Below are positions 1-25,178 of a stretch of 42,334 nucleotides of DNA, piece after piece (positions within the stretch are counted from its first letter, which is position 1; each line of letters opens with the position of its first letter). The notes below the pieces were generated by a model. The model saw only the letters and a list, made by a program, of their open reading frames with translations. It ran no database searches and was not told the DNA's origin. A program made the translations under genes and the position numbers. Source of the stretch: Puniceicoccales bacterium (lineage in GTDB: Bacteria > Verrucomicrobiota > Verrucomicrobiia > Opitutales > LL51); NCBI GenBank assembly GCA_031284265.1, contig JAITAG010000068.1, positions 1 through 42,334 of the forward strand, written 5' to 3'.

Positions 1-3000
1 ATATCGCGGAGGAAGGAAACCAAACTTCCCGCCTGAACCTGATTCGAATCACTACCATTCACCTGCGGCCAACCATTGGGATCGTCTGTCGAAGCTGGAG
101 CTAATTTTAATATTACCGATTCCGGAACATTGGTTATCGCTGTCGCCGCATGTAAATCCATTTCATTCAGCCCCGTCGTATTCAAAAATTCTACCTGCAT
201 GGAATTGAGCGGATCAAACGGAGAAGCGGGCTCGTCCGCAAGCTTCTGCGTCTTCTCCTGGATCATCCCAATCATCGCCGGCGTCTTGTAATTCGCCATC
301 TCAAAGAAACATAGGCGATCCCGTGCCATGTAAATCGGCACTTCCATGTTCTTCGTCACCTGCTCCACGTAATCCATCATCAAATCATTCTTCGGTAACT
401 TCGCCTTCGCCAATGTGTAAATATACCCCTCCGTCGAAGTTGTCGCCCCATCCTCTTTGTACCGAAATAACGTCTGCAACGCATTATGGCGAATCACATC
501 TTTAAAAAGAATGCCGTCCACTCCCCACTCCGACGCATCAACCGTACTCCTCGCCTTTCCCCATTTACACTCAATACTCGTACCTCCTTCTCCGGAACCA
601 ACCGTAAATAGATAGGGACTCGACGCCGAATACGCCTTAATCACTGAATTATCCTTTGTTGTCCATTTATTATTAGTATAGGAACCATAGGCACTGGCCA
701 AATCCAATACGCATTTCTCAATCTCCCCTTTCGTATTGTTGTAGCGGAATAAAAATTCATGCCCAAGCAACGGATCGGCCCCGTTTGATCGCACGTAGTC
801 GCAGAGGCGCAACGCATGCTCCCCCGTCGATAACTTGACAAATTGTACCGCGATTTTCCCCGGTGTGCGCTGAAATTGTACCGTATCGTTTAAAAATACA
901 ATTTCATTGCCGATTTTTCCGTAATTATTGTAGACGTATTCCAAAAGCATAATCTTGCCGTAAAGCTCAACCTGCGCCTCAATCACCTTAATCTTATCCG
1001 CCGTAAATTCCTTCAACTTCTTGATCGTCTCCCCTAGCCGCTCCTTTAGTGTATTCATTTCCGGCGAAATTACACTCTCTACTCCCTGCGCTTCCGCTTC
1101 CTTGGCTTTATCCTCCAAATCCCAACTTAAACGCAAGGTCTCTAGATTCGTTACCATTTCCTCAAACCGCGTATAGCAAGTCTCGTAAAGTTTCGTATTA
1201 AAGTTTTCTCTATCCGTAGCCGATGGATTAGTTCCCAGTTTGGGAGTAATTGTCGGCTCTATCTGTCGTACCAGTTTTCCAACGGCCAGCGATAAATCTC
1301 CCCCCCAAAATTCCTCATGGGAGACAATGTTGCCAAAGTGATTGAAAAGAACATTGTTAATCGACGTAAGACGCTGGACAAAAATATTTTGCTCCTCCGA
1401 TGAAACTTTGTAAGCCTCCACCTCATCGCGTATGCCGCGGTAATAATTCAACCATTTTTCATCGGTACTGATAATCACACGCTTCGTATATTCATCAAAT
1501 ACATCTACCAAGGCACCGCTACCATCGGACCGATATTCCGGATGATTCTGTAAAGCCACCGCGCCTAACTCACCCTTTTGATCATAGACGGCAATCGCCT
1601 TACTATAGGTATCGAGATTTCCATTAATGGCATCCAAATGTTCCCTTATTTTACCCCCCAATTCGCCGTATAATGCTCGACTGTTATCGCTATCAATATT
1701 ATTGATTAGCGTTTCTACGCGTTCCAGAGTCTGTGCAAATGATTTGACATAAACATCCGTAATGATCGCCTCATCACTGCCATCCACGATCATCGCCAAG
1801 TCTTTCACCGGAACATATTCCAATTGGGTTCCCTTTTGAAATAAATCATCTTTCTTGTATAACTTTCCATCGGTACCACGAAGTTGAATTGCCGCCGAAT
1901 TACAGTATTGATCATCGCGCGCCGTCGAAAAATCGCCTTCATATTTATAATAAAGTCCATCACCTACGTTATCTAGTGTACAAAAGTCATATTTTGTACC
2001 GTAAATATAGAGCGTATCCATGGCTAGACTGCTGACAAAATAAACCTCCTCATTTGGATCGCGTTTTACGTAGTAAACATCGCGCAATCGAATAAAATTG
2101 GGATCATTTTTTACGGCATTCCATTCATAATATCCGGTTGTTTCAGCGCGGACAACTCCTCCTTCCGGATCGGGAGCATAACTCCCGGAAGTACCGTCAA
2201 TTGTCACCTTTTTTTCCTGGCCAAAATAGACGACGGGGCTTGCGCTGCCAGGATCCGTATCGATTTGATAACACAAGGTACCCGTATCACCCGTATTTGC
2301 TTCTTTATACAAAGTGACGAGATCATTCACAGCGACATCCTTGCCGTAGGCATTGACAAAAAAGGAATGAATGCCAGCATTGGGGTCATTGACAGAGATT
2401 TCACTTTTTTTGACATACTCGTTTACGATTTTAATGCGATCCCCAAGATTGTTTTCCGTAACATAAATGAACTGAGTGGGATGAGGTATGCTAACGTCAT
2501 CAACTTTAAACAAATAATTACCCCTAATTGCAGTTGTCCCTTGACCAATATATAGTTGTGGATCGGATCCTATCTTCATAGCATAATATTGGCCATCATC
2601 ACCTTTGATGAAGAGTACAACATCCGTAGCCGTCGTATCCTGGCTATAAATAAATTCATAGTTTTTGAAAATATCTTCGCTTAATGAGGTTATGGCCGTG
2701 CTTGCTTTTTCTGAGTAAACAAAGCCCAGAAAATCGTTATAAGCGCCGTCGATGGCAACTTTCAAATTTTTAGCACCATAGAAGGCATTATCGGTACCTT
2801 TTAGATAACAGTTTACAGTTTGTGAGTTTGCATATCCTGTGTTTGCAGTTTTTGTGATAGTATAAATTTCAAATTTTCCATTTCCTGAATTATATATATC
2901 TTTCAATGTATCATCTAATAGTTTGCTACACTCTGTGTAGTCTCCATTTTGTCTAAAATTTCCCACTAAATTATCTACATTTATTTTATCTTTTTCTTCT

Positions 3001-6000: not shown

Positions 6001-9000
6001 TGTTGTTCCGGTGAAAGTTGTACGAAAGCTACTTCTTGCTCAACTAATTCAAAATATTGGCCATTACTGAGGATATATTGCTTATTTTGTTGCACGTCAT
6101 ACTGAATATAGCCTTCTTTCTCGGCCGGTTCTCGATAAAGCCATCCTACGCCATCGACTCTATGTGCCTGCATGCAATTACTACTGCTGTCACTTGTGAA
6201 ATAGTGCGGTCGAGAGTCTACAATTTTTAAATCTCCCTGATAAGGTTTTATTTTTTCTAAAAGTGTTTGGACATTGGCAGTGTCTCCGCAGGTATAGTAT
6301 GATGTTTCTCCATTGCCCAAAATATCTTCACATATATCACTATATGCCTCTTTAGCTTCAGTTAATTGTGTCTCATCACTATTCCAATAGGGATATTTTT
6401 TTTGCAAAAATACCATAAAACAGGCCGCATTGAATGCCTTAAACATATCGGTAATGGTATCGTTCTGAAACTGTTTAATCGCATCGATGATTGCTTTAAT
6501 TTTTTCACAAATATTTGTATCTTTATAGTCCGCAATGCTTACATAGTCACCCGCGATGAGTGCGTTTAATGCCTGGGCAAAAGAATCCGATCCCGCTGTT
6601 CCTAATTTTTCTCGAATCGCATTGTAAATGCCGGTTAATTGGTCATATTTAGTTTTGGCATCCTCGGCATCACTTCCTGTGGCCGTTGAATCGATTGGGG
6701 TAGTTCCTGCCAATTCTTGCAAAGCCTTGATTGCCTGCTCCGCCGTCGTATTAGTAGGCGGTTTCAAGACGTACCACAGCAATCGATGCAATTCTTTAAA
6801 TTTTGACTTAATATAGGTTAATTGCTGAAAATTGGCATTGGCATTTTGGACTACGTTACTGTTTAATTTATTGACATTAGGGGTCAAAGCTTGACCGAAG
6901 GTTGAACCTCTATGGGCTTCGTAATATTTTTGCAAGGATTCATCCTGACCGAAATTTGAAAATAAAACCGCAATTTGTCCTTTTATATTATTGATAACAT
7001 CTTTAACGGTTTGATCTGCAGTGTCGTAAGAATCATTTGGGAAAGCACCTGAAAAAGCCTCTTTTAAATTTAACCGTTGGGTTTCATTGGTGGCGAGATT
7101 GGGATATAATTTTTCCAATAGGAGGAGATAATATTGGGGCTGTGCTTGCTCAAAGGCCACCTTAATCTCATTTAAACAATTTTGAAAGCAGCCATAACTT
7201 GCACTGGAAATTTTGCCATTTATCGCATTAATAATTTCCCCAAATGCAGTATTGATGTCATCTAATTTCTCCTGTGTTGGTTCCGCTACAAATAACGTTA
7301 AATAAGTATTAAGGGCACTTATTTTTCCATTTATTGCTTCTACAAAGCTTTCCATTCCTTTGATGAGCACACACAGTTCAGCGGAATCCTGTAAATCGTG
7401 TAATAATTTATCCAAAGAAATTTTGGAAATAGTTGTTATTTGTGGAGTCGCACCATTTCGTATGTATTTCTGAAATTCGGTGTATAAAGAATATATACAT
7501 TGTTCGACTTTTTGCCTATAATTATTAAATATTCCCGAAAATACCTCGAATTTTTCATTCTTCAAATTCGTATTAATACTTCCCTTAATGTTACTCAAAT
7601 CGATATCATTGATTGTATTTTTTGGGTAAATAGACTGGAAAATGTCACCTAACGTTGCCTCTGAAGCGGTATTCTGTGCAATATAGGCTTTGTGGAGCAA
7701 AATTTTCAAAGCATTGACTTCTGCTGTGGACAAGTACTTTTCACAGAGCTCTTCGTCCGCCGTTTCGAGCTCTTCCCAATGGCCAAAAACGAATCGGAAC
7801 ATTGCCATTTCTTCCCGTGTTACGGCATTTTGATTAAATTTTGAAAAAATCCCGAGATAAGTCATGGCTTCAAAGCGATACAAGTGCTCAATTAAGTGGT
7901 TTATGTAGGCGTTATGTGCCGTAATTTGACTCTCGTCCCACGTAATAGGGGTCACATCGACGTAATAGGACGTATTCAATGGGTCACTGGGGTCTGATTT
8001 TTCTACGCAAGAATAGCTGTTTTTTAATTTTTGAATTTCTTCATCGATTTTTAAACGCAATTGGCAATGAATTATGGACAGCACTTCCCGATAGGCTGGA
8101 GCTTGATCAAGTCCGGAACTATTGAAAACCGTTTTAAAAATCGTTAAAAGCCCTTCAGCGGAGGCGAGACTTGTCTGCAACGCTTCTTTTTGAGTGGCAT
8201 ATGCACTTGGATTCGTAGCATCATAGGCAGTAATAAAATCAGTGATCTTCGGTTGAATCGCGGTTAATACATCGGCTTTGATCAACGCATCACTCTGAAA
8301 AAAACTTACCGCTTCATTGTAAGCTTCGACCAAAATACTCAGACTATGGTTTTCATTATTTTTATTAATATCGGTGAGCGCGAGATTTTCGATAGTCTGG
8401 GTAGTAATATCGTCCCAAGATGATGGATTTGAAAATATTTCATTCGAAAAATCATTTAAAGCATTGAGGAATTCATTTTGTTGTGATCCTGAGCCTAATA
8501 GAGCTTTTGATATTTCACTCAAATTATAAACATACTGAATTTCTTGGGATGCTTCAGTAAAAATTCCCTTAAGGGATGTTCCGACATGGGTTGAATCAAT
8601 TAAATCAGCAACCTTTTGGATACGATTGCCCAATAATGCGGTACTTGAAATACCGGTACTATCTGCATTTTGGGCCAGCGTTAGGACTTCATTAAATGTG
8701 AGTGCTGAAGTTTTATCATCAAACGCCGAAATTCCGGAATAGGGCGCTTCTTCCGATTCCGAAGACGCTTCCTCTCCGCATAAAAATTTTTGGACGATTT
8801 CTTTCGATTCCGATAGTAAGACACTCAATAGCAGTAATTTTTCAATTTCCGCACTACAATTTAGAATATCTTCCATTGCTGCTATGACTTCCGGATCGGT
8901 GGGATTATCGTCAGTCGTTACGTTTCGTCCCAAAGCATTATTTAATCGCGTAGAAAATGTTTTTAATGTCTCTAAACTCGGTGAAGATTCTTTACGAATC

Positions 9001-12000
9001 TCAGCTAAGATACCAGCAATCGTTTGATTCCATTCGCTTTCTCCGATCTCATTGTTGTCAGCTACTCGATCTTGATAATCAAGGTAAGATTCATCCGTGC
9101 ATAATTTGACATGGTTTTTCAATGATTCAAAATTACTCAGAATGGCCTGAATGTTTTCCAAGCGATCTCCAACAATTCTTTGCTGCAATGTTCGCGGTGT
9201 ACCGTCAGCGGGCTCATTGCTTGTCAGTGCATTATCCACGGTTGTTTTTGTTTCTGCCAAGTTATAATTTGTAAAACTATTCAAAGCCGCCGTCAAAGCG
9301 CTCTGTGTCGTTGCATTAAAAACATCTCTCAAATCTAATTGATATCCATCAATGGTCGTGGCAACAGACGATAATATCGTCGGCAATGATTGGGATGTGG
9401 CAATTTCAATGGTACCATCAAATATGCCTAATAATGTAAAAATTTCGTGATACTCTGGGAAAATACCATCCTTTATATTTCCATCATTCAATGCATTCCT
9501 AATCGTTTCAAACGCCAGTTTTTCGTCATCATCTGGAGTAGCTAAAGCGCTTACGATAATGTAGCGCAATTGCTCTCGTATGTTCGGCAATATTAGATTG
9601 TTTACATAGTCTACACTTGCATTTTTTTCTTCATCGGACACTGACCTATTTTGTAAAATTCCAATCCAATCATCGCTGACTCCCAATACTCGTAAATCGT
9701 CTGCGGATAAACTGGAATTCCCATTCCATGAAAAAGTCATCAAAAAAGCATCATATTGTGTTTTCAAATCTTGAAAAAGTCCTTTTTGTGTCATATCTTC
9801 TGTCGAGTATCCGTTTGTTTTGAGCGATTGGGTCAAACTTTCCAATGTTTCTCTCATAGCTTCCATGGTACTATTATTATCAATAAAAAGGTTATACGCA
9901 TAGGTATTTACGACGTATTTCCAATAAGCATTGGCATATCGCTCATCATAGCTATCCATGAGATTTTCGGTAGTACTGACGTAAACGGGCGGATTAACCG
10001 TTCCACTCCCAGGATATTTTACAATTTCATTTCTTATTTCATTTATTGCATCATTATTCCAAACATAATGTGCCTCTTCCGGATGAAACTCTCCCGATTC
10101 ACTGTCTAATGCCGTGCCAAAAGGTGTATCACTTCTGCTCTCTGAATTATCTATTTGTTTTAAAAAGCCAAATTTCTCTTCAATTGTGTTGTCCTCAATC
10201 TCTAAACAATACAGATCAAAGTTAGCGAGTATGTATTTCAATTGATTCTTATTATTGCTAGAGAAATGATCTTTATTAGTAATTCCATCAAGTGCTTTTA
10301 AAAATGAATATTGAAATGCCTTTTGGCCATTATCATCAAATCCCGAATATGCTGAGGATATCACTGTTTTTAAATCGTTCCCATCCGCATTCTGCGCCCA
10401 AAATCCGTCCCAATCGATTATATCTGCTCCAAAGGAAGTAATGATTCCATTCGCACCATAGGTAACACTTGCAAATTTTTCTACAAACAGATTTACTGCA
10501 CCAATAATATCAGTATCATCACCAATCGCAACCCACGTGTCATAATCAAATTCGGCTTTTTGAAGGAAATAAGTGCTCGCCGGATGAGTGGCCATATCAG
10601 CATTCTGCGTTTGCAACGAATCAATTTCTTCGGTCAAATGCTGTATTAATAAATCTGTCATTCCAGGATCAGTTTCTTCGGTTTCATTTTCATCATAAAA
10701 CACGTAGGAGTTGGTGGTATTTTTATCATTATCGCCATCGTTATTTCCAAAAAGATATATGGACGATGATTCTGACTCCAAGTCAACGGTAGCAATTATG
10801 CTACACAAAAGCTCTTTGAGTTTCCCTAATTGATCTACCGTGCTTTTCAGTTCATTAAGTTCATTATTCGCAAAAGCCCTTCGTAATTCATCTACAACTT
10901 GATAACGGAAATTTGCCAGTATTTGATTCGCGTAGATCCCTAACTCTGCCTGATCTTCATTGGTAATGGTAATCGTTATATCATCCGGCAACCCCGTGTC
11001 TTTTGTTTGCAGTAGCACCGATACGTCACTTCCATCAAATGTCGCCTCACTTATTTTTTTTAAAAGTTCCGTAAATAATCTATTGAGTTTATTAATCTGC
11101 GTAGCCTGATCATTATTGTTAGATGTTGCTATAGCACTACAAAGATTAGTCAAGATTGTATCGAGCTCAGTTTGGGTATCACTATCATTCTTTTTTCTTG
11201 TTAATGTTTTATAAATATTTGACTTTAAACCTTCTATATAGTTTTCCTTGACAGCCGTTTGGGTCTCTTCGCTGTATTCTAACTCACCGACAGTTTTTGT
11301 TTCCACGTCAACTTCTATTGCGTTAAAAACATAATCTTCCGCCAATTGCCAGAAATTTTCCGCATCTAAAAGCCCTTTAAATGTCGCACTGGCAGCTTCG
11401 ATTTTCGATTGGATTCCATAGGCATATACCCCACCATAAATCGCCAATAGGGATAAATTGTCCTGCCCTACCAATTTTGAAACCTGATTATTAAATTCAG
11501 TCGTGAAAATATTACCCGTGGTATCAATGATGTTTTCTGTTAAAAAATCACTTGCGGCATAATCATTGCCATTATAACTGCCCAACTGATCGACGATATT
11601 GAGTACGACCTGATTATTGAAGGATTGGTATAATTCGAGCTCCGCCGTGATAAGGGATTGTAATTTTCCCACATCATTTGATGTTAAAAATGTTTCGAAT
11701 GTATTTGCACCAATTGTATTTTTGACAACGTAAAATTCCGTGGAATTTGCATTATCTTTGAATTTTTTGATACGAAATAATTGGTCATTTAATGTGATAG
11801 TCGTTGAAACATCATCCATCGACAAGTTAGCCCAATTTGGGGTACCATTACTATCTAATAAATTGTCCCCTTCGTTTGTCGTAAGTCCCTGTATTGTCGT
11901 TTGAGCAGTATTTATAGATAGACAAATTTCATTTATTTGATTGTGCAGATTCAGGTTATTTAATGAGTCGTTATAACTATTAATTAGATCAGCTTTGTTT

Positions 12001-15000
12001 ACGTCGGTGCTACTTTTGCTTAAGTTAGTGAAGGCAGTTTTATAGCCGTCTAAACCATTCAAATTTGGATTATTTTCCAATCCAAAATCGCTAACAATTT
12101 TATTATGGGCCAATACAAACTGGCTCATAAGCCACCGCGAACGATCATAGGCTTCATCGACCTGCTCTAGATTCCTATGAGCAATTTCTGCAACAGAAGA
12201 AACAGTTTCCGCAGGATTTAAACCCGTAGCAGCGATAGTACCTATGGCGTCATACAAGCTTTCAAATTTCAACTCCCTAGGAAGATTTTGCACATCGGTG
12301 AAATATGGACCATTTTCGGGCACAAGTCCTTCCTGGGAAGGATTTTCCGTTTTAACCGCGCCACCTACGATGCCTTTTAATGTACCATTTTCCGGTGTCG
12401 ACGTATACAATACACTGGAAAAACTTACATCGTAGGCAGTCCTATCAATCGCATCGAGTAAACTGAGGGCATCCGCTTTCGTAAGTGTAAATTTTCGGTC
12501 TTCCACATTCCCCAATTCCTCTCGATCGACAAAACTTCTTAGCGCCGTCCTTAGGTCATTCAATGGGATAAATTGCGATTTCCAACTGGGATACAGCTTC
12601 GTCAACAGATTGCTCAAAGTCATTTGTTTGTTTTGTTGTAAAATTTGAAGCAACTGTTGTAAAATTACCTGGCCATGACTCGCCGCTAGATCGGTCAATT
12701 TGTTAGCCGGATCATCTCCGATTTGTACACCGTTTTGGATGCTTGCCATGTATTCGGTTTTAAACTTTTCTTCCAAACCTGATAATGCGCTGTGCATATC
12801 TTGAAAGGACGTTATAGCGTCTGTAGCATTTATTGAATCCAATTTGAATATATTAATATAAATTCCAACGGTTGTTCCTTTCAATAGGGCAACAGCCTCA
12901 TTGTAGGCGCTTGCAATTTTATTGAAAAGGTAAACATAATAATCCTTTTCTACGGTATTTTGAGTTGTACTATCAAAATCTGAGGATAAAAGTTCTATGG
13001 GCTGCAATGTATTAATATTGTCTTTTAATGCACCAGCCTCACTTACTGAACCCATGTTTACCAAATTCGCCATGGTTTCATTTAAGGCGCTGAATTTTGT
13101 CCCATAGGTTTCAAATTTAGTTTCAGGATTATAATCCGCTTGGGTAAAAATTATTTTTAGGCTATTTTCCCCATCGGCTTCCCAACTCGGTAAAATTGCT
13201 TTCAAAGTTGCCTCATCACAATTACCTTTGAGCGGCAATAGGTTACTTTCAAAGGAACTGATCAGTGAATAAACCGCACCGCTGTCTTCTAAAAATTTAA
13301 TCAAACCATTGAGAATAATTCCTAGGCTTGGTCGCAATGATGCAAATTCTGCCTTTAACCGTTCATAGGATGAATTTCCCCCTTCCCTATTGACATACCA
13401 GTCGGAGTATTTCTTTTGCGCTTTTTCTAGGAAAAATGCAACTTCGATGTGATCTAAAATGGTCAATAAATCCTCGATCGCATTCCTGAGATTGGCCTCA
13501 TTGGTGATATTTCCCGTACACGTTGCGTCGATATTTATAGCGTCTATGTCCGCTCTGATGATATCCAGTGCATTTTTGATCTGCGTAAAAACATCGTCCG
13601 CAGTACTTGAATCGGCGTTTTTAAGCGTTGTTATTAAGTTGTTAGAGGGATTTACCAATCCTTTTAAGCCTGCACTGACAACATTATACGCATCAACAAA
13701 TTTGTTAACGGTATAGGCATAGCCTCCCCCATCCTCAAAAGTTTTAGTTGCAGACGCCAATCCATTTAAATCGTTATAAAGTGTAGTGTAGCGATCGGAT
13801 TCCCTCGGATCTATAAAATTCTTAAATATGCCATTTAGACTCTTAATCGATTCGTCATCCGATTGGTTAACCAATCTATAAACGGATTTCATTTGATTCT
13901 GGATATCTGTCTTTGCACTATCCGAAATACTACTGGCTAAATCTTCGACACCTTTTGGTATATAGGTATCGCTTTTAATCAGTGGATAAACGTTGGCAAA
14001 CAGGGTTAAAAGCGAAAAATCAATGCTATTGGAACTGATATATTTGGTCAGTTGTGAAAATAGGGAAGTTCCATCCGTATAGGGAATATGTTCACAGGAA
14101 ACGAGCAATTGTTTGAATTGCGATAACAATTCTCCATTGTCATATAAACCCGATGTCCTATAGGCTTCAATTGCATTTAAGATTTCTGCAACGGGAATAT
14201 TGATATCCTGACTGGGATCATATCCCGTGTCCACATACTCGACAATCCCTTTGGCATATAGATACGCTTCCGCTTCTTCATTATATTCTTTTTCTCCATC
14301 TAAACTGGTCACACTCGCATCGACCGTTCCCGAACCATAGAGTCCATTTTCCATGGTACGCATGATTCCATGGTCAATGGCCATGCTGTAAATTTTATTG
14401 ACTAGTACCTGGCGCTTGACCGCATCCGAACGCCATCCCGTAATCGTTTCATCCAAAAGATAAGTATTTAACTCTTTTCTAAAATTGTTGGCTTTGATAT
14501 ACTCCAACAACAAATCAATGATCTCCAATTCTCGCTTTAACACAATCTGTTCACTGCGTATTCCCTGTAAAATGGCCTCCGCGAAAATATCATTACCATT
14601 CGCCAAATCATTATATTTTTCGAGTAAATTCGTCAGCTCAACGCTGTAATCACTGATATCATATTTCCCTTGGTCTTTGTAACATTTCGCCCCATATTTC
14701 TCGTAGACATGAATATAATCTATTAAAAGCCCGGAAATATTTAATGCGGATCGATCGGCCTTGAAAAAGACGGAAAATAGATCGTATTGATTGTCCAACT
14801 TGGGGTGGCGATGGGATGTACCATCTTCAAACACGTAGGCTTCTCCATGAAATTGAAAGGATTGTATGGCATCGTAATATACGCCGTAATTCGTGCGCAA
14901 TTCTTCAATTTTTTCCATTAGAAGCGTGCCCACGTCCTTACTATTCCTCGCTTTAGCGGTTCCAAACCACCCTCCCAATAATTTTGTAAATTTCACAAAA

Positions 15001-17450
15001 TCATTATAAATAATGGGCTCATAGTGATCTTTCAAAATCTTGGCATAGGTATATTCTAAAAATTTTTCCGTTTCCGTATTGATTGCTGAAATTGAAAAAC
15101 CGTTAATGGTTACAATTTTTTCTCCTAAAATGATAGATCGTAAACTTTGTAATTGGGCCTCGACCTTATCCTTCGTTGCCAATACCAGTGTTTCCTCGGA
15201 AATTTGTTTTTCAATGGCAGTAACCAGGGAAGAATCTTGTGGCGACGTGTCTTCGGACAAATGTAATATTTCCTGAATAATTTTTCCCGCATTGGCGCGT
15301 ACGGCAGTATCCTTAATAAATGCATACTTTCCCTCCAATTCCTTTTTCGTCGCGTCGTCAGCTCCTCCCGATAAGAATGATTCCAGTCCCTCATTAATCC
15401 ACGCTTTGATCCGTTCTTGAATGTCATCGAGATTTGAATTTATAAGCGATCCGTCATTCAAGGATGTAATAAAATCTTCACCTATAACAGTGATGCTGTC
15501 GGTGGGTTTACCGAACTTTTCGTCTAGTAAACGGTTTACAATGTACAATTCGAGATCGGGAAGAAAATTCCCCGATAGCGCATAGCGCAGCTTTTCCCGC
15601 TCTCCTTGAGCCGCATTGTCTACCATCGGGAAAATCTTTTTGATTGCATTGCGGATTTTTGAATCTCGAAATTCATTAATTAATACCGTATGTACGGCTT
15701 GCATGAGCGGTTCTCGTACGCGTCGATCGATATATTGTTTAATAGTAAACGTTTCTCCATTTAAATAATCTGTAACATTTTTAAATACACTGTGGCTCTC
15801 AACCACGGGCTTATAATCGATGATCAGGTCATCTACCGTTAATTCCGCGGGCAGATGGTTTTCGTTCTTTAACAAAATTAATTGACTTTTGACATATTTT
15901 AACGCTTTTTGGGATATCTGGAATTGTTCCGTTGACAGTGGATCTCCCGTATCCGTAAGTTTCACATCATCGGAAAATTCCATATTTAAATAGCGATCAA
16001 TCTGATTAATTTGGCATTGTAACTTATATTTACGCGCTTCCCTAAGTACAAGATCACTCACCAATGAAAGAAATAATTTGCGAATTTCGCTGCGAATGGC
16101 ATTTAAAGTATTGGTTTTATCCGTTACATCGAAGTAACCTTTGCTAACAAAATCATCAAAAACTTGACCGGCAAGGGCTTCAATATTATCACTGCCTCCA
16201 CACTTTACCGTTATGCCCCCATCAACGGCGCCTGTGCTGAGATAGGTCTCTATCTTTTGTGAAATTTCGTCCTTAATTTCATCGTCGGAGACGAGATTCT
16301 CCGTACGAGTTTGAAGAGATTTTAATGTCGTCGATAGGCCGATCATCAATAGATCGCGGCACAGGGCATCGGCAACGGTCTCGCTATCTAGACTATTTTG
16401 AATCTTTTTTACGAAAAAATTTCCCAGAATTTTGCGAACGTTATAGGAAATGGTCGCATCACTTAAATCGATCGCGCTAATTTTATCCTTGTAAAGTAAG
16501 GCAGACGTTTTTCCTGCAATGAGGTCTCTGAGATAATACAATGGCGTCGACTCAATACCGTCTCGCTTTTCTATGTCCGTCGCATCGTCATCCAAGCTAA
16601 TTTTATCGTCATTAATATAAATCGATTGTGTAGCCCTGCAATAATCCCTAACCATATAATAGTTCACATAGGCGACAATTTCTGCCCAACTTAATTGGCT
16701 GCCATTGCTCTGGCGGGGTAAATCGGGAGCAAAAACGATTTCTTTTAAAAAATCTTCGGTCGTATTTTTCCAAATGCTATCTTCCCTTTGAAGCGTGGGA
16801 TTCGTTAACCGTTCGCGCAAGGAATGATCAGCACTGAGTAACTGTGTACTAATTTGATAACCCGCATCGCTGAAAAATGTATCGTGGGCAAGAAACGTAA
16901 GCCATTCGACATTTTCTCGAGTCAAATTTCTTTGCTCAGACGCAGGATTATCCCAAATAAAATGTTCCGGATTGGGTGCTGCCGGCTTTGAGGTTTTAAA
17001 TTCCAACTCGCTGAGCCCGGGCCCATCCTTTGCGGTTAATGCTTCGTCAACGGGATGCAATATGAAGGAAGGTAACGCATCTATATTCCTTATATAATTC
17101 CGATCGATGGCACTCTCCCTTGGCCTAGGCAGCCCTTCGATAACCGGTTCCGTAAATTTCGGAAATAGGTCATTTACGATTCCTTTTGTCGTCTGCGGTG
17201 GAGAAAATTGCGGCAGATCCGAAATGCCCTTACTGAAAGCCGAAGGAACGTTTCCAGGATTTTCAATATGGTCAGGTTTTGCCAAAGGCATACCGGTATC
17301 TTCTCCGATATTCATCTCAATCTCATAGAACGAAAATGTTTTATCCGGGTTAAATGGATTGTTGCGAGGATCTGCTGGGTCCAGCAAATCTGGAGCCATC
17401 GCCCCCAATGTTCCTTCCATGTATTCTTTTGGATCAACTCTTATTCCCAT
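1..17450 (-). CDS. Giant protein: N-terminal 5,816 codons in window, C-terminus beyond the left edge; no family recognised
   Basis: ATG at 17450-17448 follows GGAGG with an 8-nt spacer. I hand-translated about 800 codons from the start and about 33 codons at the left edge. I also spot-checked the frame near 2.5, 3.3, 5.2-5.9, 7.5 and 10.0 kb and found no stop. If this frame held a stop, the track would list a minus-strand ORF starting at 17450, and it does not. No other track ORF across these 17.4 kb exceeds 204 aa. Confidence 0.9.
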   Translation of the reverse strand, partial: MGIRVDPKEYMEGTLGAMAPDLLDPADPRNNPFNPDKTFSFYEIEMNIGEDTGMPLAKPDHIENPGNVPSAFSKGISDLPQFSPPQTTKGIVNDLFPKFTEPVIEGLPRPRESAIDRNYIRNIDALPSFILHPVDEALTAKDGPGLSELEFKTSKPAAPNPEHFIWDNPASEQRNLTRENVEWLTFLAHDTFFSDAGYQISTQLLSADHSLRERLTNPTLQREDSIWKNTTEDFLKEIVFAPDLPRQSNGSQLSWAEIVAYVNYYMVRDYCRATQSIYINDDKISLDDDATDIEKRDGIESTPLYYLRDLIAGKTSALLYKDKISAIDLSDATISYNVRKILGNFFVKKIQNSLDSETVADALCRDLLMIGLSTTLKSLQTRTENLVSDDEIKDEISQKIETYLSTGAVDGGITVKCGGSDNIEALAGQVFDDFVSKGYFDVTDKTNTLNAIRSEIRKLFLSLVSDLVLREARKYKLQCQINQIDRYLNMEFSDDVKLTDTGDPLSTEQFQISQKALKYVKSQLILLKNENHLPAELTVDDLIIDYKPVVESHSVFKNVTDYLNGETFTIKQYIDRRVREPLMQAVHTVLINEFRDSKIRNAIKKIFPMVDNAAQGEREKLRYALSGNFLPDLELYIVNRLLDEKFGKPTDSITVIGEDFITSLNDGSLINSNLDDIQERIKAWINEGLESFLSGGADDATKKELEGKYAFIKDTAVRANAGKIIQEILHLSEDTSPQDSSLVTAIEKQISEETLVLATKDKVEAQLQSLRSIILGEKIVTINGFSISAINTETEKFLEYTYAKILKDHYEPIIYNDFVKFTKLLGGWFGTAKARNSKDVGTLLMEKIEELRTNYGVYYDAIQSFQFHGEAYVFEDGTSHRHPKLDNQYDLFSVFFKADRSALNISGLLIDYIHVYEKYGAKCYKDQGKYDISDYSVELTNLLEKYNDLANGNDIFAEAILQGIRSEQIVLKRELEIIDLLLEYIKANNFRKELNTYLLDETITGWRSDAVKRQVLVNKIYSMAIDHGIMRTMENGLYGSGTVDASVTSLDGEKEYNEEAEAYLYAKGIVEYVDTGYDPSQDINIPVAEILNAIEAYRTSGLYDNGELLSQFKQLLVSCEHIPYTDGTSLFSQLTKYISSNSIDFSLLTLFANVYPLIKSDTYIPKGVEDLASSISDSAKTDIQNQMKSVYRLVNQSDDESIKSLNGIFKNFIDPRESDRYTTLYNDLNGLASATKTFEDGGGYAYTVNKFVDAYNVVSAGLKGLVNPSNNLITTLKNADSSTADDVFTQIKNALDIIRADIDAINIDATCTGNITNEANLRNAIEDLLTILDHIEVAFFLEKAQKKYSDWYVNREGGNSSYERLKAEFASLRPSLGIILNGLIKFLEDSGAVYSLISSFESNLLPLKGNCDEATLKAILPSWEADGENSLKIIFTQADYNPETKFETYGTKFSALNETMANLVNMGSVSEAGALKDNINTLQPIELLSSDFDSTTQNTVEKDYYVYLFNKIASAYNEAVALLKGTTVGIYINIFKLDSINATDAITSFQDMHSALSGLEEKFKTEYMASIQNGVQIGDDPANKLTDLAASHGQVILQQLLQILQQNKQMTLSNLLTKLYPSWKSQFIPLNDLRTALRSFVDREELGNVEDRKFTLTKADALSLLDAIDRTAYDVSFSSVLYTSTPENGTLKGIVGGAVKTENPSQEGLVPENGPYFTDVQNLPRELKFESLYDAIGTIAATGLNPAETVSSVAEIAHRNLEQVDEAYDRSRWLMSQFVLAHNKIVSDFGLENNPNLNGLDGYKTAFTNLSKSSTDVNKADLINSYNDSLNNLNLHNQINEICLSINTAQTTIQGLTTNEGDNLLDSNGTPNWANLSMDDVSTTITLNDQLFRIKKFKDNANSTEFYVVKNTIGANTFETFLTSNDVGKLQSLITAELELYQSFNNQVVLNIVDQLGSYNGNDYAASDFLTENIIDTTGNIFTTEFNNQVSKLVGQDNLSLLAIYGGVYAYGIQSKIEAASATFKGLLDAENFWQLAEDYVFNAIEVDVETKTVGELEYSEETQTAVKENYIEGLKSNIYKTLTRKKNDSDTQTELDTILTNLCSAIATSNNNDQATQINKLNRLFTELLKKISEATFDGSDVSVLLQTKDTGLPDDITITITNEDQAELGIYANQILANFRYQVVDELRRAFANNELNELKSTVDQLGKLKELLCSIIATVDLESESSSIYLFGNNDGDNDKNTTNSYVFYDENETEETDPGMTDLLIQHLTEEIDSLQTQNADMATHPASTYFLQKAEFDYDTWVAIGDDTDIIGAVNLFVEKFASVTYGANGIITSFGADIIDWDGFWAQNADGNDLKTVISSAYSGFDDNGQKAFQYSFLKALDGITNKDHFSSNNKNQLKYILANFDLYCLEIEDNTIEEKFGFLKQIDNSESRSDTPFGTALDSESGEFHPEEAHYVWNNDAINEIRNEIVKYPGSGTVNPPVYVSTTENLMDSYDERYANAYWKYVVNTYAYNLFIDNNSTMEAMRETLESLTQSLKTNGYSTEDMTQKGLFQDLKTQYDAFLMTFSWNGNSSLSADDLRVLGVSDDWIGILQNRSVSDEEKNASVDYVNNLILPNIREQLRYIIVSALATPDDDEKLAFETIRNALNDGNIKDGIFPEYHEIFTLLGIFDGTIEIATSQSLPTILSSVATTIDGYQLDLRDVFNATTQSALTAALNSFTNYNLAETKTTVDNALTSNEPADGTPRTLQQRIVGDRLENIQAILSNFESLKNHVKLCTDESYLDYQDRVADNNEIGESEWNQTIAGILAEIRKESSPSLETLKTFSTRLNNALGRNVTTDDNPTDPEVIAAMEDILNCSAEIEKLLLLSVLLSESKEIVQKFLCGEEASSESEEAPYSGISAFDDKTSALTFNEVLTLAQNADSTGISSTALLGNRIQKVADLIDSTHVGTSLKGIFTEASQEIQYVYNLSEISKALLGSGSQQNEFLNALNDFSNEIFSNPSSWDDITTQTIENLALTDINKNNENHSLSILVEAYNEAVSFFQSDALIKADVLTAIQPKITDFITAYDATNPSAYATQKEALQTSLASAEGLLTIFKTVFNSSGLDQAPAYREVLSIIHCQLRLKIDEEIQKLKNSYSCVEKSDPSDPLNTSYYVDVTPITWDESQITAHNAYINHLIEHLYRFEAMTYLGIFSKFNQNAVTREEMAMFRFVFGHWEELETADEELCEKYLSTAEVNALKILLHKAYIAQNTASEATLGDIFQSIYPKNTINDIDLSNIKGSINTNLKNEKFEVFSGIFNNYRQKVEQCIYSLYTEFQKYIRNGATPQITTISKISLDKLLHDLQDSAELCVLIKGMESFVEAINGKISALNTYLTLFVAEPTQEKLDDINTAFGEIINAINGKISSASYGCFQNCLNEIKVAFEQAQPQYYLLLLEKLYPNLATNETQRLNLKEAFSGAFPNDSYDTADQTVKDVINNIKGQIAVLFSNFGQDESLQKYYEAHRGSTFGQALTPNVNKLNSNVVQNANANFQQLTYIKSKFKELHRLLWYVLKPPTNTTAEQAIKALQELAGTTPIDSTATGSDAEDAKTKYDQLTGIYNAIREKLGTAGSDSFAQALNALIAGDYVSIADYKDTNICEKIKAIIDAIKQFQNDTITDMFKAFNAACFMVFLQKKYPYWNSDETQLTEAKEAYSDICEDILGNGETSYYTCGDTANVQTLLEKIKPYQGDLKIVDSRPHYFTSDSSSNCMQAHRVDGVGWLYREPAEKEGYIQYDVQQNKQYILSNGQYFELVEQEVAFVQLSPEQHVRILTPHILYEQSGGGYRLTADKVTQPVSENAVNYYVLGEDGTYYNIKRYHLKYKVYDGDNIKYIDLHSNDTFCYRATLRGYAEVASKDFPDLKGPLANDRDYFIIGDEGQYYKVDDVYTKYYYKEAELSDSESDNTSNTKEPIANGTYYKIVGETTDGCVLENGETVSIYSETLERNNTGVLFTQDNNGNYYLDNGFYYKIQTIGGELYIKRADGTNKKITASNGERYKISGYDSTKFDGSGTNENEAVKVGTQYYSLKKYKIVYNNGSSILPLEGNLSSLSGKTLYVLPGDISLSRLEASNIVSKGGVSMGTSLDIYRSSLTPFYRSTQNEKKFFGMKLYQWGVGEKYIARDDPYLVIPVTYERYVRNSENPEGFTAESKDVYIFSEVLNQYVLVGNTDAYYFTQGEKEYRVEFPDRRYVRQAVENSDQYLYVPHPESKYTEQSGSTAIDGDCIYANGKFLPIKQDDPGNGEPKINRTQKFQVKVNPDIDTNNDYVQASDGGYYPLKDVKIKTINGREFTYSTAIFYKAAETPSPLSIASWQPYALEEETYNNLFTKNTNQGELIRASEEGSTETCFVIPVKSVAGSYVHGENGRYYDVNNGSSRELYVDYDLVSDEGNWFVLQEDTLVQVDRKFYAKYSETDYKEIKTVGANETIKAGTKSLLPGNRYIEVSGNIIQIKDGEREYVKKSDNTYVPLKDNTGKVMVKKKVNVSGGMEGLNGILVANASDKKVVTEVKDKDLYIAKDMQVEGANGQLYNLNGMTVNGSESGSGPALDTHGLSNIFVKKSGTKFVRVSQPTEQYTVNENASGNFVKIGSKYYDRRRDDITLKVKYENEEGQMSYRTLNGNDTNIPIYLSIGDSKVQVKPTEGSNVSGSGLFEQYNVQANGSPTYTALSRQQSKAVRFGTQYYNLKDFQLVVKRNGKLSKFIGNLDELKSSNGVYMVPYLVPEKADLETYDAAKAIKVDRYYVPTKDEFSLNMDQYLPKMREYADRKNENLEEKDKINVDNLVGNFRQNGDYTECSKLLDDTLKDIYNSGNGKFEIYTITKTANTGYANSQTVNCYLKGTDNAFYGAKNLKVAIDGAYNDFLGFVYSEKASTAITSLSEDIFKNYEFIYSQDTTATDVVLFIKGDDGQYYAMKIGSDPQLYIGQGTTAIRGNYLFKVDDVSIPHPTQFIYVTENNLGDRIKIVNEYVKKSEISVNDPNAGIHSFFVNAYGKDVAVNDLVTLYKEANTGDTGTLCYQIDTDPGSASPVVYFGQEKKVTIDGTSGSYAPDPEGGVVRAETTGYYEWNAVKNDPNFIRLRDVYYVKRDPNEEVYFVSSLAMDTLYIYGTKYDFCTLDNVGDGLYYKYEGDFSTARDDQYCNSAAIQLRGTDGKLYKKDDLFQKGTQLEYVPVKDLAMIVDGSDEAIITDVYVKSFAQTLERVETLINNIDSDNSRALYGELGGKIREHLDAINGNLDTYSKAIAVYDQKGELGAVALQNHPEYRSDGSGALVDVFDEYTKRVIISTDEKWLNYYRGIRDEVEAYKVSSEEQNIFVQRLTSINNVLFNHFGNIVSHEEFWGGDLSLAVGKLVRQIEPTITPKLGTNPSATDRENFNTKLYETCYTRFEEMVTNLETLRLSWDLEDKAKEAEAQGVESVISPEMNTLKERLGETIKKLKEFTADKIKVIEAQVELYGKIMLLEYVYNNYGKIGNEIVFLNDTVQFQRTPGKIAVQFVKLSTGEHALRLCDYVRSNGADPLLGHEFLFRYNNTKGEIEKCVLDLASAYGSYTNNKWTTKDNSVIKAYSASSPYLFTVGSGEGGTSIECKWGKARSTVDASEWGVDGILFKDVIRHNALQTLFRYKEDGATTSTEGYIYTLAKAKLPKNDLMMDYVEQVTKNMEVPIYMARDRLCFFEMANYKTPAMIGMIQEKTQKLADEPASPFDPLNSMQVEFLNTTGLNEMDLHAATAITNVPESVILKLAPASTDDPNGWPQVNGSDSNQVQAGSLVSFLRD

Positions 17451-17458
17451 TTTTTCAT

Positions 17459-17463
17459 CCTCC
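17459..17463 (-). promoter_or_regulatory. Shine-Dalgarno (GGAGG) of the giant ORF
   Basis: Plus-strand cctcc is GGAGG on the minus strand, 8 nt upstream of the ATG at 17450. Confidence 0.6.
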
Positions 17464-17529
17464 TATTTTTTGTTTTTTATAAATTATGTCTTTATTTTCT
17501 TACTTTATTTACGATTAAAAATTTTTCAC

Positions 17530-20883: not shown

Positions 20884-21269
20884 AATACTGCCTTTGTTTT
20901 AGATTTTGGACAAGCGATAGCCAGGCGGAGATCTTGTTCCTGCATGCCTAGAAAGTGGGTATAGGCGGAACGAGCTTCTGCGTCCCGTCCCAAAGCCCAT
21001 AAAACTTTACTCTTCAGGACAAAGAATAATTTATCCAATTCCTTTGATTTGGGGAGTGGTTCTGCCGATTGGAGGGCTTGCAATGCCGTATCGGGCGTAT
21101 TCGACTTCAATGCGGCAAAGGCGAGCGAAAGGTTGACGAGTGAATCCTCTGGAAAATATTCCGCGAGAACAAGCGACAGAGCAAACGCATCGTCGAATTT
21201 ATTATAGCGCAAAAAAAGGTAAATGAGAATTTCTAAAAATTCCTTCTGAGAATCATCCATAACATCCAT
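20880..21269 (-). CDS. Small helical-repeat (TPR-like) protein; positional analogue of the T3SS chaperone SctY/YscY
   Basis: 129-aa ORF whose stop overlaps the sctV start (ATGA). It has Ala/Leu-rich helix-pair patterning. In Ysc/Psc loci a TPR protein of about 115 aa (YscY/Pcr4) sits directly upstream of the sctV homologue. The assignment rests on position and composition only. Confidence 0.4.
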   Translation of the reverse strand: MDVMDDSQKEFLEILIYLFLRYNKFDDAFALSLVLAEYFPEDSLVNLSLAFAALKSNTPDTALQALQSAEPLPKSKELDKLFFVLKSKVLWALGRDAEARSAYTHFLGMQEQDLRLAIACPKSKTKAVL

Positions 21270-21278
21270 CCGATTCTC

Positions 21279-21306
21279 AATATAGTGAGGAATAAAAACT
21301 TTTCAA
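21279..21306 (-). promoter_or_regulatory. Candidate sigma70-type promoter of the TPR-like/sctV/giant-ORF operon
   Basis: On the minus strand: TTGAAA, 16 nt, TATATT. The -10 element ends 9 nt before the ATG at 21269, implying a near-leaderless transcript. A paralogous copy lies at 23537-23564. Confidence 0.4.
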
Positions 21307-21348: not shown

Positions 21349-21382
21349 CTAAAAAAATGGAGATTTTTCATTAAAAATCTCC
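21349..21382 (-). terminator. Rho-independent terminator after family member G
   Basis: 10-bp stem GGAGATTTTT / AAAAATCTCC (21359-21382) with a 4-nt loop, followed on the minus strand by a T-run (ATTTTTTTAG). A near-identical copy lies at 23592-23615. Confidence 0.6.
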
Positions 21383-22518: not shown

Positions 22519-22634
22519 ATCGCTCTTCCCCCTATTTAACCTCTGAATCCCCGCTTAGGAAAACAATGATAATAATAATAAAGCTAAGCGAAAAAATCAG
22601 AAATTTCCAATTAAAATAATGACTTTAATTTTTA

Positions 22635-23507: not shown

Positions 23508-23536
23508 AAACTCATCTCCTTAAAATTTCAATTCTA

Positions 23537-23564
23537 AATATAATGAGGAATAGATATTTTGCAA
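23537..23564 (-). promoter_or_regulatory. Candidate sigma70-type promoter for family members F and G
   Basis: On the minus strand: TTGCAA, 16 nt, TATATT. It lies in a segment paralogous to 21273-21390. Confidence 0.4.
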
Positions 23565-23580
23565 ATTTTTTTTATAAAAT

Positions 23581-25144: not shown

Positions 25145-25178
25145 ATCTTTTTCTTTCCTTTAATATCGTTAAATATCG

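Follow-up and report, generated by a model that had tools for sequence, protein, structure and literature searches.

The 17.4-kb open frame at the left end of the 42,334-nt stretch of Puniceicoccales DNA analysed here (hereafter, the window) is a real gene, namely the first two-thirds of the gene for a protein of ~8,900 residues (~1 MDa), a length predicted from its relatives. The protein, which we refer to as the giant, is a member of a giant-protein family specific to its clade, and its gene shares one minus-strand operon, coding for a type III secretion translocon, with sctY, sctV and a gene for a 412-aa protein. We consider it, with a probability of roughly 0.55, to be a type III-exported, translocon-class protein for host contact. 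The original prediction, made from the letters alone, had described the open frame and its start; membership in a translocon operon, the clade-specific family, the ~3,000 further codons expected beyond the window edge and the EspA/SseB-like C-terminus of the family are new.

Reverse-complement translation of positions 3 to 17450 yields 5,816 codons with 0 stops, whereas each of the other five frames has 286–551 across the same interval. At the stop frequency that the base composition implies (p(stop) = 0.070 per codon), a stop-free run of that length would arise by chance with a probability of ~1e-183. The frame is closed by an in-frame TAG 15 nt before the ATG, and this, together with the Shine-Dalgarno sequence, makes the start well defined; orthologues begin at the same residues. 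The visible part of the protein (5,816 residues) amounts to 651.7 kDa with a pI of 4.65. Along most of the frame the codon-position composition follows GC1 > GC3 >= GC2, while over the final ~300 codons at the edge GC3 rises to 0.55 and overtakes GC1, and codon usage correlates with that of neighbouring housekeeping genes (RSCU r = 0.79). The earlier reading of a single minus-strand ORF, open at the edge, starting at GGAGG-N8-ATG and encoding more than 0.64 MDa, is thus borne out, and its hand-translated N-terminal sequence proved exact.

Table 1. Features of the giant gene and its operon, with positions in the window
Feature	Position	Strand	Basis or remark
Giant gene, 5' 17.4 kb, codons 1-5,816	3..17450	-	still open at window edge
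Shine-Dalgarno AGGAGG	17459..17464	-	8 nt upstream of ATG 17450; direct sequence reading
Pro-rich conserved N-terminal module without Sec signal, residues 1-245	16716..17450	-	conservation in L001, P0006
Helical module copy, residues 1246-1403	13242..13715	-	iterative HMM seeded on 'YP.W' segments
Helical module copy, residues 1506-1673, LYPSW motif	12432..12935	-	iterative HMM, 'YP.W' seed
Most variable part, residues ~1700-3000	8451..12353	-	conservation profile; dN/dS
Helical module copy, residues 3363-3494	6969..7364	-	iterative HMM, 'YP.W' seed
Helical module copy, residues 3600-3749, KYPYW motif	6204..6653	-	iterative HMM, 'YP.W' seed
Tyr/Gly/Asp-rich, β-hairpin-rich region, residues ~4130-5200	1851..5063	-	homologues and AF2 model
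412-aa acidic protein gene, between sctV and giant	17530..18768	-	synteny in relatives
sctV, FHIPEP export gate of type III secretion system	18781..20883	-	PF00771
sctY, TPR-like export-apparatus chaperone	20880..21269	-	overlaps sctV by 4 nt
Promoter-like site TTGAAA-16-TATATT upstream of sctY	21279..21306	-	consensus scan only
Terminator-like hairpin ahead of sctY promoter-like site	21359-21382

Collinear, unbroken orthologues were recovered from at least 11 independent Puniceicoccales/Verrucomicrobia assemblies, with frames of 4,235 to 7,571 codons that run without a break in all the independent assemblies retrieved. P0003 is 49% identical to the giant over residues 5-4876, in collinear alignment; further orthologues are P0001, P0002, P0006, P0007 and L095. 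Two of these reach a stop codon: P0006, which is complete at 7,571 aa and whose locus is syntenic with ours, including accD and NamZ flanks, and L095, a 7,190-codon frame with its 5' end cut. The L095 frame is collinear with the giant and continues for 3,075 residues past the equivalent of the window edge to its stop, from which a full length of ~8,890 aa (~1.0 MDa) is predicted. Towards the edge, a word-index search with residues 4617-5816 returned no match, an exhaustive HMMER search found relatives of that region, and a related-locus search with residues 5217-5816 as a single query gave no relative; an exact 50-mer taken at the edge itself matched none of the genome or metagenome contigs searched. 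The NCBI/JGI source names returned for family members are all 'hypothetical protein', some of them flagged partial.

Gene neighborhood analysis places the giant within a type III secretion context. SctV matches PF00771 with E = 2e-225 over residues 29-689 of 700, and SctY scores 77.3 bits against NCBIfam NF052415 (T3SS_chap_SctY; cutoff 70). No terminator-like site lies on the minus strand between the 412-aa gene and the giant. The 412-aa protein, without any Pfam or NCBIfam match, keeps its position in L081, L085, L086, L087-L089 and L093 and is 56–61% identical where SctV is 92–96% identical; it is a candidate dedicated chaperone or co-substrate. Of other injectisome genes, including the core set sctN, C, J, R, S, T, U, Q and F, none lies in the window, which weighs against the translocon reading.

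In the relatives, the conserved order runs sctY, sctV, the ~412-aa gene, the giant, an LcrH/SycD-type chaperone, an SseC-like protein and a ~300-aa, SseD-sized protein. In three loci (L083, L084 and L085), the genes that come after the stop of the giant encode, in turn, a TPR chaperone, a protein of 505-777 aa with hydrophobic segments and one of ~300-336 aa; in L095 the gene for the chaperone begins 17 nt beyond the stop, where the locus sequence ends. The chaperone matches TIGR02552 (LcrH_SycD) with E = 1e-23 to 3e-27, its 83-95 bits falling just under the 104.8 cutoff. In the SseC-like protein, two hydrophobic segments accompany a weak match to SseC (E = 0.005), and profiles of it and of the ~300-aa protein retrieved only coiled-coil noise from the PDB. 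The translocator assignments of these downstream genes, drawn from position, size, hydrophobic segments and that one weak match, are therefore putative. In every relative examined, the giant lies between sctV and the translocator chaperone with its translocators, and this downstream order puts it in the slot of EspA, SseB or LcrV, the hydrophilic translocator or tip proteins of known injectisome loci.

The visible part of the giant contains no known domain and comprises a coil-predicted N-terminus, helical modules and a β-hairpin-rich region. The N-terminal module is 36% identical in the mosaic relative L001 and 41% in P0006, with scattered invariant prolines, and in a low-confidence AF2 model it is mostly coil with short helices only; it may act as a secretion signal with an extended chaperone-binding region. 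The helical modules, of ~160 aa each, are diverged and were recovered by iterative HMM searches. Residues ~1700-3000 have no counterpart in P0006, and residues ~4130-5200 form the best-conserved part across the family, with homologues at 30-50% identity and an all-β AF2 model that includes a confident island at residues 4419-4549. Tile-versus-tile phmmer found a single internal duplicate of ~90 residues (4020-4109 and 4676-4765), and BLASTP self-comparison detected no repeats, tandem or otherwise.

Profile searches of six tiles against Pfam, PHROGs and NCBIfam yielded nothing above threshold, the noise comprising ECM29 ARM, CheX and, at E = 5e-5, a PHROG tail protein, and phmmer with the whole visible part found nothing in the PDB at E <= 1. 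This agrees with the original prediction, which had recognised no enzymatic or adhesin motif. Clear homology to RTX proteins, Tc toxins, lymphostatin or non-ribosomal synthetases, which it had named as refuting evidence, is likewise absent from the Pfam, NCBIfam, PHROGs and PDB sequence searches. Its statement that a Sec-type leader is missing also stands: no hydrophobic segment (KD, 19-residue window > 1.6), Sec or Tat leader or TM segment occurs anywhere in the 5,816 residues. AlphaFold2 models were of low confidence, with pLDDT 37.9 for residues 1-1100 (3 sequences) and 44.8 for residues 4130-5000 (8 sequences), and Foldseek returned no PDB match at E <= 0.001. Against BFVD, tail-fibre and adenovirus-fibre proteins ranked at the top with TM ≈ 0.05 and rmsd > 30 Å, at best a hint of an extended β-fibre.

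The rest of the protein was read in the relatives, beyond the window. At the family C-terminus, a coiled-coil stretch resembling EspA/SseB is accompanied by a hydrophobic segment and by a terminal helix whose last residues are '...NIR'. Three relatives pass the gathering score of EspA (PF03433; 23.4 bits), namely P0012 (25.9), P0013 (26.2) and P0011 (24.6), with P0006 (18.2), P0014 (17.9) and L095 (18.7) below it; the match is short, covering some 70 of the 180 positions of the model. NCBIfam SseB is matched at E = 1e-7, far under its cutoff, over SseB positions 55-114, a stretch that includes the SseB coiled-coil at positions 58-90 (PMC2873485). A profile search of the PDB retrieved no tip protein, and Pfam found no EspA/SseB match in the visible part of the giant, the matching region being expected beyond the edge. 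That the giant of this genome carries the same C-terminus is extrapolated from relatives at 30-57% identity and is accordingly only predicted.

Relatives carry one hydrophobic stretch of 29-54 residues near the C-terminus, and this stretch together with a ~350-residue domain separates the EspA-like helix from the C-terminal helix. Such a segment is unusual for EspA/LcrV-class proteins and counts against the translocon reading. Comparison of the C-terminal module with the SseC-like neighbour and the ~300-aa protein by hhalign detected likeness in the last 21 residues only (E = 0.06); no homology extends beyond these, and we gave up reading the module as a translocator paralogue.

These termini also bear on whether the giant could be a needle-length ruler of the SctP/YscP kind, acting as a very long molecular tape measure. 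Rulers are indeed type III substrates, non-globular and with a length that scales with that of the needle. However, they are encoded with sctO and sctQ rather than between sctV and the translocators, the family C-terminus is EspA-like and hydrophobic, and neither Pfam nor NCBIfam finds a T3S4/ruler domain, whether in the visible part of the giant or in the parts of P0006 (residues 4401-7571) and L095 (ORF residues 4116-7190) that lie beyond the edge, so that we regard this role as highly improbable. The same two C-terminal segments also lack NRPS/PKS, Tc-toxin and lymphostatin domains.

The giant evolves roughly ten times faster than SctV, yet it is under purifying selection along its whole length. 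It is 46–56% identical where SctV is 94–96% identical, with dN/dS of 0.25–0.29 versus 0.03–0.04 (dS being near saturation in the compared pairs). The ratio stays below 0.5 in every 400-codon bin and peaks at 0.3–0.5 in residues ~1700-3000. Such a fast but constrained rate is a pattern typical of host-interaction proteins, and purifying selection along the whole of a gene that takes up 3% of the DNA of the one long scaffold available (757 kb) argues for its importance to the organism.

An assembly artefact, a decaying pseudogene or an already known type of giant protein (RTX adhesin, NRPS/PKS, Tc toxin or lymphostatin) might be suspected, since many metagenomic contigs break within the gene and one relative, L084, shows an apparent frameshift. 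Against this stand the negligible chance of such a stop-free run, the unbroken frames of the independent assemblies, the constraint in every bin, the empty searches for those families in Pfam, NCBIfam, PHROGs and the PDB, and the lack of tandem repeats. We therefore consider this explanation extremely improbable and refuted as far as sequence analysis can refute it.

Taken as a translocon-class substrate of the type III system, the giant would have its Pro-rich, signal-peptide-less N-terminus recognised and threaded first, ~8,000 residues of helical modules and β-hairpin-rich region would fold outside the bacterium, and the EspA/SseB-like C-terminus would dock at the needle tip or translocon. 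The outcome would be a very long single-chain extension contacting a host cell that is probably a protist. Gene context and family features are the basis on which secretion, docking at the tip, formation of a fibre and binding to the host are all predicted. More tentatively, and as a possibility we would not favour on present evidence, a single chain of ~1 MDa could pass through the injectisome and be held by its EspA/SseB-like C-terminus as a 'mega-tip' or filament of hundreds of nanometres, with which a verrucomicrobial symbiont reaches or holds its protist host.

The same operon and N-terminal evidence would also suit a giant effector or host-membrane scaffold delivered into the host cell by the type III system, a tether anchored in a host membrane by a C-terminal hydrophobic hairpin, much like chlamydial Inc proteins, rather than a part of the translocon. 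The hydrophobic stretch of the relatives is long enough for a hairpin, and rapid evolution is typical of effectors. The Inc domain is bilobed and spans ~40-60 residues; the relatives of the giant carry one stretch of 29-54 residues, and its visible part has none. In Inc proteins, however, the hydrophobic domain usually lies near the N-terminus. The gene also occupies the translocon slot directly upstream of the translocator chaperone, not a place among effector genes, and the translocon class is further indicated by the EspA/SseB-like stretch and by the end that the family has in common with its SseC-like neighbour. The organisms do belong to the PVC superphylum, in which related Verrucomicrobia are protist endosymbionts (PMC8204192). 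On balance, we find the effector reading doubtful.

Secretion of the giant is itself an inference, and a structural or envelope protein that stays with the cell, for example one anchored in the inner membrane by the C-terminal hydrophobic segment and merely sharing the sctV operon, would account for an N-terminus that is not obviously Ser/Thr-rich, unlike many type III signals, and for a size far above that of any known type III substrate. Known substrates are mostly below ~2,000 residues, and to our knowledge none approaches the giant; our literature search on giant type III proteins and on type III secretion in Puniceicoccales found nothing relevant. A non-secreted protein is nevertheless unlikely given the gene's constant place between sctV and the translocator genes in the relatives examined, the EspA/SseB-like stretch of the relatives, the visible part devoid of leader and TM segments, and an evolutionary rate like that of host-interaction proteins.

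If the giant is indeed secreted, it would exceed by far every known substrate of a type III machine and would test the limits of injectisome export with about 3 µm of unfolded chain, offering a new way of building an extracellular bridge to a host cell. A mega-tip would, if real, span with one chain the distance that EspA filaments cover by polymerising a 20-kDa subunit. Secretion would also open a way to study how a poorly known verrucomicrobial clade, probably associated with protists, interacts with its hosts. The routine fragmentation of giant genes in metagenome assemblies is a warning in its own right.

Comparison with known systems places the giant apart from other very large proteins and closest, by gene order, to the translocon components. 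Giant adhesins of the RTX/Bap type share its size class, acidic composition and probable role in cell contact. They are built from near-identical tandem Ig-like repeats and leave by type I secretion with C-terminal RTX signals, whereas the giant has only ancient, diverged helical modules, no BLAST-detectable tandem repeats and a type III operon. LifA/Efa1 is reported as type III-secreted and is, like the giant, a very large host-directed protein of a bacterium bearing such a system. This lymphostatin, of 366 kDa (PMC8505758) and with an AB-exotoxin topology in a structural study (PMC12198386), differs in being roughly a third of the giant's size, in its location outside the translocon operon and in its glycosyltransferase and cysteine-protease domains. 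Neither of these domains, nor adenylation, condensation, KS or TcA/TcB/RHS domains, occurs in the 5,816 residues (Pfam, NCBIfam and PDB, E <= 0.1-1).

Tip proteins of the LcrV/IpaD class share the genomic setting, being preceded by sctY-sctV and followed by an LcrH-type chaperone gene and a pair of translocator-like genes. In the Yersinia Ysc-type order, yscY-yscV-lcrR-lcrG-lcrV-lcrH-yopB-yopD, the giant falls in the lcrV slot and the 412-aa gene in the lcrR/lcrG slot. The giant differs ~25-fold in size, and the searches detected no resemblance to LcrV or IpaD in sequence or fold. The usual occupants of this operon slot, whether tip, sheath or filament proteins, measure ~20-40 kDa. This holds for the EspA/SseB family (PF03433), the sheath, filament and translocon proteins of LEE- and SPI-2-type injectisomes, which at ~190-200 residues are small two-helix coiled-coil proteins; the giant family, with ~8,900 predicted residues (7,571 in P0006), does not fit that description, and its match of only ~70 residues lies outside the window after ~8,000 unrelated residues. 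Even so, this family offers a close parallel: it shares the gene slot upstream of a TPR chaperone, an SseC/EspD-like protein and an SseD/EspB-sized protein, neither side has a Sec signal, the C-terminal module of the giant family matches its coiled-coil region, and the order of the giant locus in the relatives matches sseB-sscA-sseC-sseD of SPI-2.

Direct translation of the reverse complement of window positions 3 to 17450 gave 5,816 codons and no stop, as expected from the original prediction of a single minus-strand frame of at least that length, against 286 to 551 stops in the remaining five frames; given a stop probability of 0.070 per codon, which follows from the local base composition, such a run has a chance of ~1e-183. 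The start of this giant gene is fixed because an in-frame TAG sits 15 nt upstream of the ATG at 17450. An 8-nt spacer separates AGGAGG (17459-17464) from this ATG, in line with the predicted GGAGG-N8-ATG, and the hand-translated N-terminus is identical to the computed one. The visible product is acidic (pI 4.65) and reaches 651.7 kDa, consistent with the mass of more than ~0.64 MDa proposed earlier. For most of its length the frame shows GC1 > GC3 >= GC2, and its relative codon usage is correlated (r = 0.79) with that of the housekeeping genes in the window. The sole oddity lies in the last ~300 codons (window 3-900, minus strand), where GC3 is 0.55 and exceeds GC1, against 0.31-0.43 in the preceding bins, and total GC climbs to 0.47 directly before the window edge. 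The ORF is confirmed because uninterrupted frames recur in many independent assemblies; it is a real, very long gene, and an artefact, a pseudogene or membership of a known giant family can be all but ruled out.

The giant gene follows genes for the injectisome components SctY and SctV and a 412-aa protein (see table). A consensus scan, giving motif matches only, places a promoter-like site and a terminator-like hairpin directly upstream of sctY and no terminator-like site between the 412-aa gene and the giant; the promoter-like site and the lack of a terminator-like site fit a sctY-sctV-412-giant operon. Housekeeping genes make up the right half of the window: accD, two NamZ paralogues, ogt and a MutY-like gene. 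The seven ORFs between accD and sctY have a near-identical Sec-signal-like leader (MDIKKMI.LGLLG.TGTFGIQW..AS, internal to the ORF calls of the 183- and 221-aa members), past which they are unrelated, coiled-coil-rich and without a Pfam hit; the same interval at L085, a relative's locus, holds just one gene, of 334 aa, whose leader differs. Among NCBIfam models, the phospholipase best matches that of the Legionella Dot/Icm effector VpdC, though it falls far short of the cutoff (E = 1e-15), and it is possibly a secreted effector encoded near type III secretion genes.

Features of the window, the giant protein and its family
Feature	Position	Strand	Description
Giant gene	3-17450	-	Open at window edge
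412-aa acidic protein	17530-18768	-	No family match
sctV	18781-20883	-	FHIPEP, E = 2e-225
sctY	20880-21269	-	NCBIfam equivalog, 77.3 bits (cutoff 70); overlaps sctV by 4 nt
Seven consecutive ORFs	21439-27255	-	359, 290, 183, 275, 274, 221, 194 aa
279-aa ORF	27356-28195	-	Hydrophobic segment, then Pro/Thr repeat PTPTPxAM.TPTPMPTATVTFSPTPRP, two and a half copies; no family hit
Two tandem NamZ paralogues	30368-33196	+	Exo-β-N-acetylmuramidase; adjoin accD; arrangement kept in L085
Patatin-like phospholipase	33425-35497	-	690 aa; ~260-residue N-terminal extension
Helical module, tandem pair 1	Giant residues 1246-1403, 1506-1673	-	Iterated HMM
Helical module, tandem pair 2	Giant residues 3363-3494, 3600-3749	-	Iterated HMM
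Internal duplicate	Giant residues 4020-4109, 4676-4765		~90 residues
AlphaFold2 model 1	Giant residues 1-1100		Mean pLDDT 37.9, low confidence, shallow alignment
AlphaFold2 model 2	Giant residues 4130-5000		Mean pLDDT 44.8, low confidence, shallow alignment
P0003	Giant residues 5-4876		5,091 aa, partial; collinear, 49% identity (BLASTP)
P0006	Giant residues 3-1673, 3101-3986, 4143-5816		7,571 aa, complete; P0006 1-1555, 2149-2984, 2992-4527 (BLASTP)
P0007			5,421 aa, contig all ORF; collinear at 26-36% identity (BLASTP)
Family C-terminal element 1			MAILYEKFTTQKNLL...ANKYLAK(I/V)NKVQAQAA(K/R)QG...VIPADVI
Family C-terminal element 2			Single hydrophobic stretch, 29-54 residues
Family C-terminal element 3			~350-residue domain
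Family C-terminal element 4			Terminal helix ending ...GNIR or ...NNIR
Gene 1 after giant			163-164 aa; TPR protein, TIGR02552 LcrH/SycD E = 1e-23 to 3e-27, also SicA/SscA/SscB models
Gene 2 after giant			505-777 aa; two hydrophobic segments, weak SseC match, E = 0.005
Gene 3 after giant			~300-336 aa

No enzymatic or adhesin motif had been recognised by eye, and our searches were likewise empty: six tiles of the visible giant scanned against Pfam, PHROGs and NCBIfam, and phmmer against all PDB sequences, returned nothing above noise, and BLASTP self-comparison detected no repeats. The families named in advance as potential refutations (RTX, Tc toxin, lymphostatin, non-ribosomal synthetase) showed no homology to the tiles; RTX/Bap adhesins, NRPS/PKS, Tc toxins and lymphostatin are thus excluded as far as sequence methods reach. 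For comparison, lymphostatin, often named as one of the largest proteins of E. coli, has a mass of 366 kDa (PMC8505758; PMC12198386). A more sensitive self-comparison recovered one internal duplicate, and a [hydrophobic]-[Y/F]-P-x-W motif occurs at two sites in the giant (0.04 expected) and four in P0006, the complete orthologue encoded at L085. An HMM iterated from the motif-bearing segments defined a ~160-residue helical module, present in two tandem pairs in the giant and in at least eight copies in P0006; its E-values are inflated by iteration, and the weight rests on recruited copies without the seed motif. In the low-confidence AlphaFold2 models, the first ~225 residues are mostly coil with short helices only and the rest of the first model is helical, while the second is β-hairpin-rich with one confident island (residues 4419-4549). 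Foldseek of the models found nothing in the PDB and only fibre-type proteins, at negligible TM-scores, in a viral library; a fibrous β region is accordingly a lead only.

Relatives were recovered by several routes. A word-index search with giant residues 1-1000 retrieved two partial orthologues (56% and 51% identity) that are truncated where their contigs end and that follow sctV and a ~420-aa gene; an exhaustive HMMER search with residues 3901-5100 retrieved eight proteins; and pattern scans of species-representative genomes retrieved eleven loci on ten contigs, with uninterrupted frames of 2,214 to 7,190 codons, all labelled Puniceicoccales or 'uncultured Verrucomicrobia'. The NCBI/JGI source names returned for family members were all 'hypothetical protein', some flagged partial. 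L085 is a true syntenic orthologue locus because its accD and NamZ flanks match those of the window. In a Puniceicoccales MAG whose SctV is 75% identical, the ORF in the giant's slot (L001, 13223-19702, plus strand) spans 2,160 aa or more and resembles the giant only over its first 230 residues (36% identity) and in patches at giant residues 990-1143, 4143-4353 and 5085-5542; this mosaic relative suggests modular reshuffling within the family. Metagenomic contigs very often break inside the giant gene (L081, L082, L086, L090, L098 and L094/L097, the last on CAMWJR010000008.1), and one 19,452-nt and one 16.3-kb contig are open frame end to end; the breaks probably stem from hypervariability of the gene between strains. 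By calculation, the 41,995-nt L088 contig would end within ~150 codons of the window's end point.

The window's last giant residue corresponds to residue 4,527 of 7,571 in P0006, and the frames at L096 and L097 also extend past the equivalent of the window edge. At L095 the frame is collinear (giant 1566-5814 to L095 residues 6-4115) and continues for 3,075 residues to a stop. Joining this extension to the visible part gives 8,891 residues and 999.9 kDa, a figure extrapolated from relatives at 30-57% identity. The family is clade-restricted and ranges from 7,571 aa (complete) to a predicted ~8,900 aa. That the giant serves as a needle ruler seems very improbable to us.

Among the species-representative genomes, the first scan placed the closest SctV in Puniceicoccales (Verrucomicrobiota) MAGs at 75% identity, then in Chthoniobacterales and Lentisphaeria; relatives found later reach 92-96%. 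Isolate codes of related MAGs (Cc175, Nc350, Cd354, Im510 and others) resemble abbreviated names of termite hosts. The verrucomicrobial 'termite/Nucleococcus cluster' comprises nuclear and cytoplasmic protist endosymbionts with ~1-Mb genomes (PMC8204192), and the window organism may belong to it. The L085 scaffold (ENA VALL22-1..., 756,918 nt, 35% GC) devotes 22.7 kb, or 3.0%, to the 7,571-aa orthologue; its low GC and size would fit a reduced, host-associated genome.

In pairs whose SctV is 94-96% identical, the giant is only 46-56% and the 412-aa protein 43-61% identical. By the Nei-Gojobori method, dN is 0.29-0.36 for the giant, 0.25-0.27 for the 412-aa protein and 0.02-0.03 for SctV, with dN/dS of 0.25-0.29 (0.10-0.50 across 400-codon bins), 0.17-0.21 and 0.03-0.04, respectively; the first two ratios are rough because dS (1.2-1.3 for the giant, 1.3-1.5 for the 412-aa gene, ~0.7 for SctV) is near saturation. 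The comparison indicates that the giant is constrained everywhere, yet its protein changes ~10x faster than the apparatus. The protein is best conserved at residues 1-200, 800-1200, 3600-4100 and 5000-5400; residues ~1700-3000, absent from P0006, are the most variable.

The last ~800 residues, read in P0006, P0011-P0015 and L095, contain four elements in the tabulated order. Element 1 scores 24.6-26.2 bits against Pfam EspA (PF03433; gathering score 23.4) in three members and a sub-threshold 17.9-18.7 bits in three others; over SseB positions 55-114 it also hits the NCBIfam SseB models (E = 1e-7 to 5e-6), and the SseB coiled-coil occupies residues 58-90 (PMC2873485). In P0006 and L095 a single frame covers both this EspA-like module and the rest of the giant. 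At L084 (1-130), a GC-rich run (GCGGCGGCGGGCGG) ~40 nt upstream of the module contains an apparent frameshift that splits the module from the upstream frame, so the gene caller lists it as a 783-aa protein of its own. Beyond the giant's stop, L083, L084 and L085 each carry three genes; the fetched L095 locus holds only the start of the chaperone gene. We rejected the C-terminal module as a paralogue of the two other downstream proteins: hhalign aligns the last 21 residues only, end to end with the SseC-like protein and not significantly (E = 0.06). Besides the EspA/SseB-like stretch, relatives carry a hydrophobic segment and a terminus resembling that of a translocator. A translocated, membrane-anchored giant effector is possible but rather unlikely. 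No hydrophobic stretch occurs in all 5,816 visible residues, in agreement with the predicted lack of a Sec-type signal at the N-terminus, and a non-secreted envelope protein is an improbable reading.

Within an injectisome translocon operon, the giant's position is fixed. Our preferred proposal is a type III substrate belonging to the translocon, tip or sheath class, whose N-terminus would be exported first, whose helical modules and β-rich region may build a long extracellular extension for host contact, and whose C-terminus would dock at the needle tip or translocon. Our literature searches found no paper on the giant family or on any type III secretion system in Puniceicoccales. The order of the relatives' genes (giant, chaperone, SseC-like and ~300-aa) is that of sseB-sscA-sseC-sseD in SPI-2. 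With sctY-sctV upstream, the relatives' locus also mirrors Yersinia yscY-yscV-lcrR-lcrG-lcrV-lcrH-yopB-yopD. Injectisome translocon operons are a known kind of system; for their EspA/SseB/LcrV slot, no ~1-MDa occupant is known.
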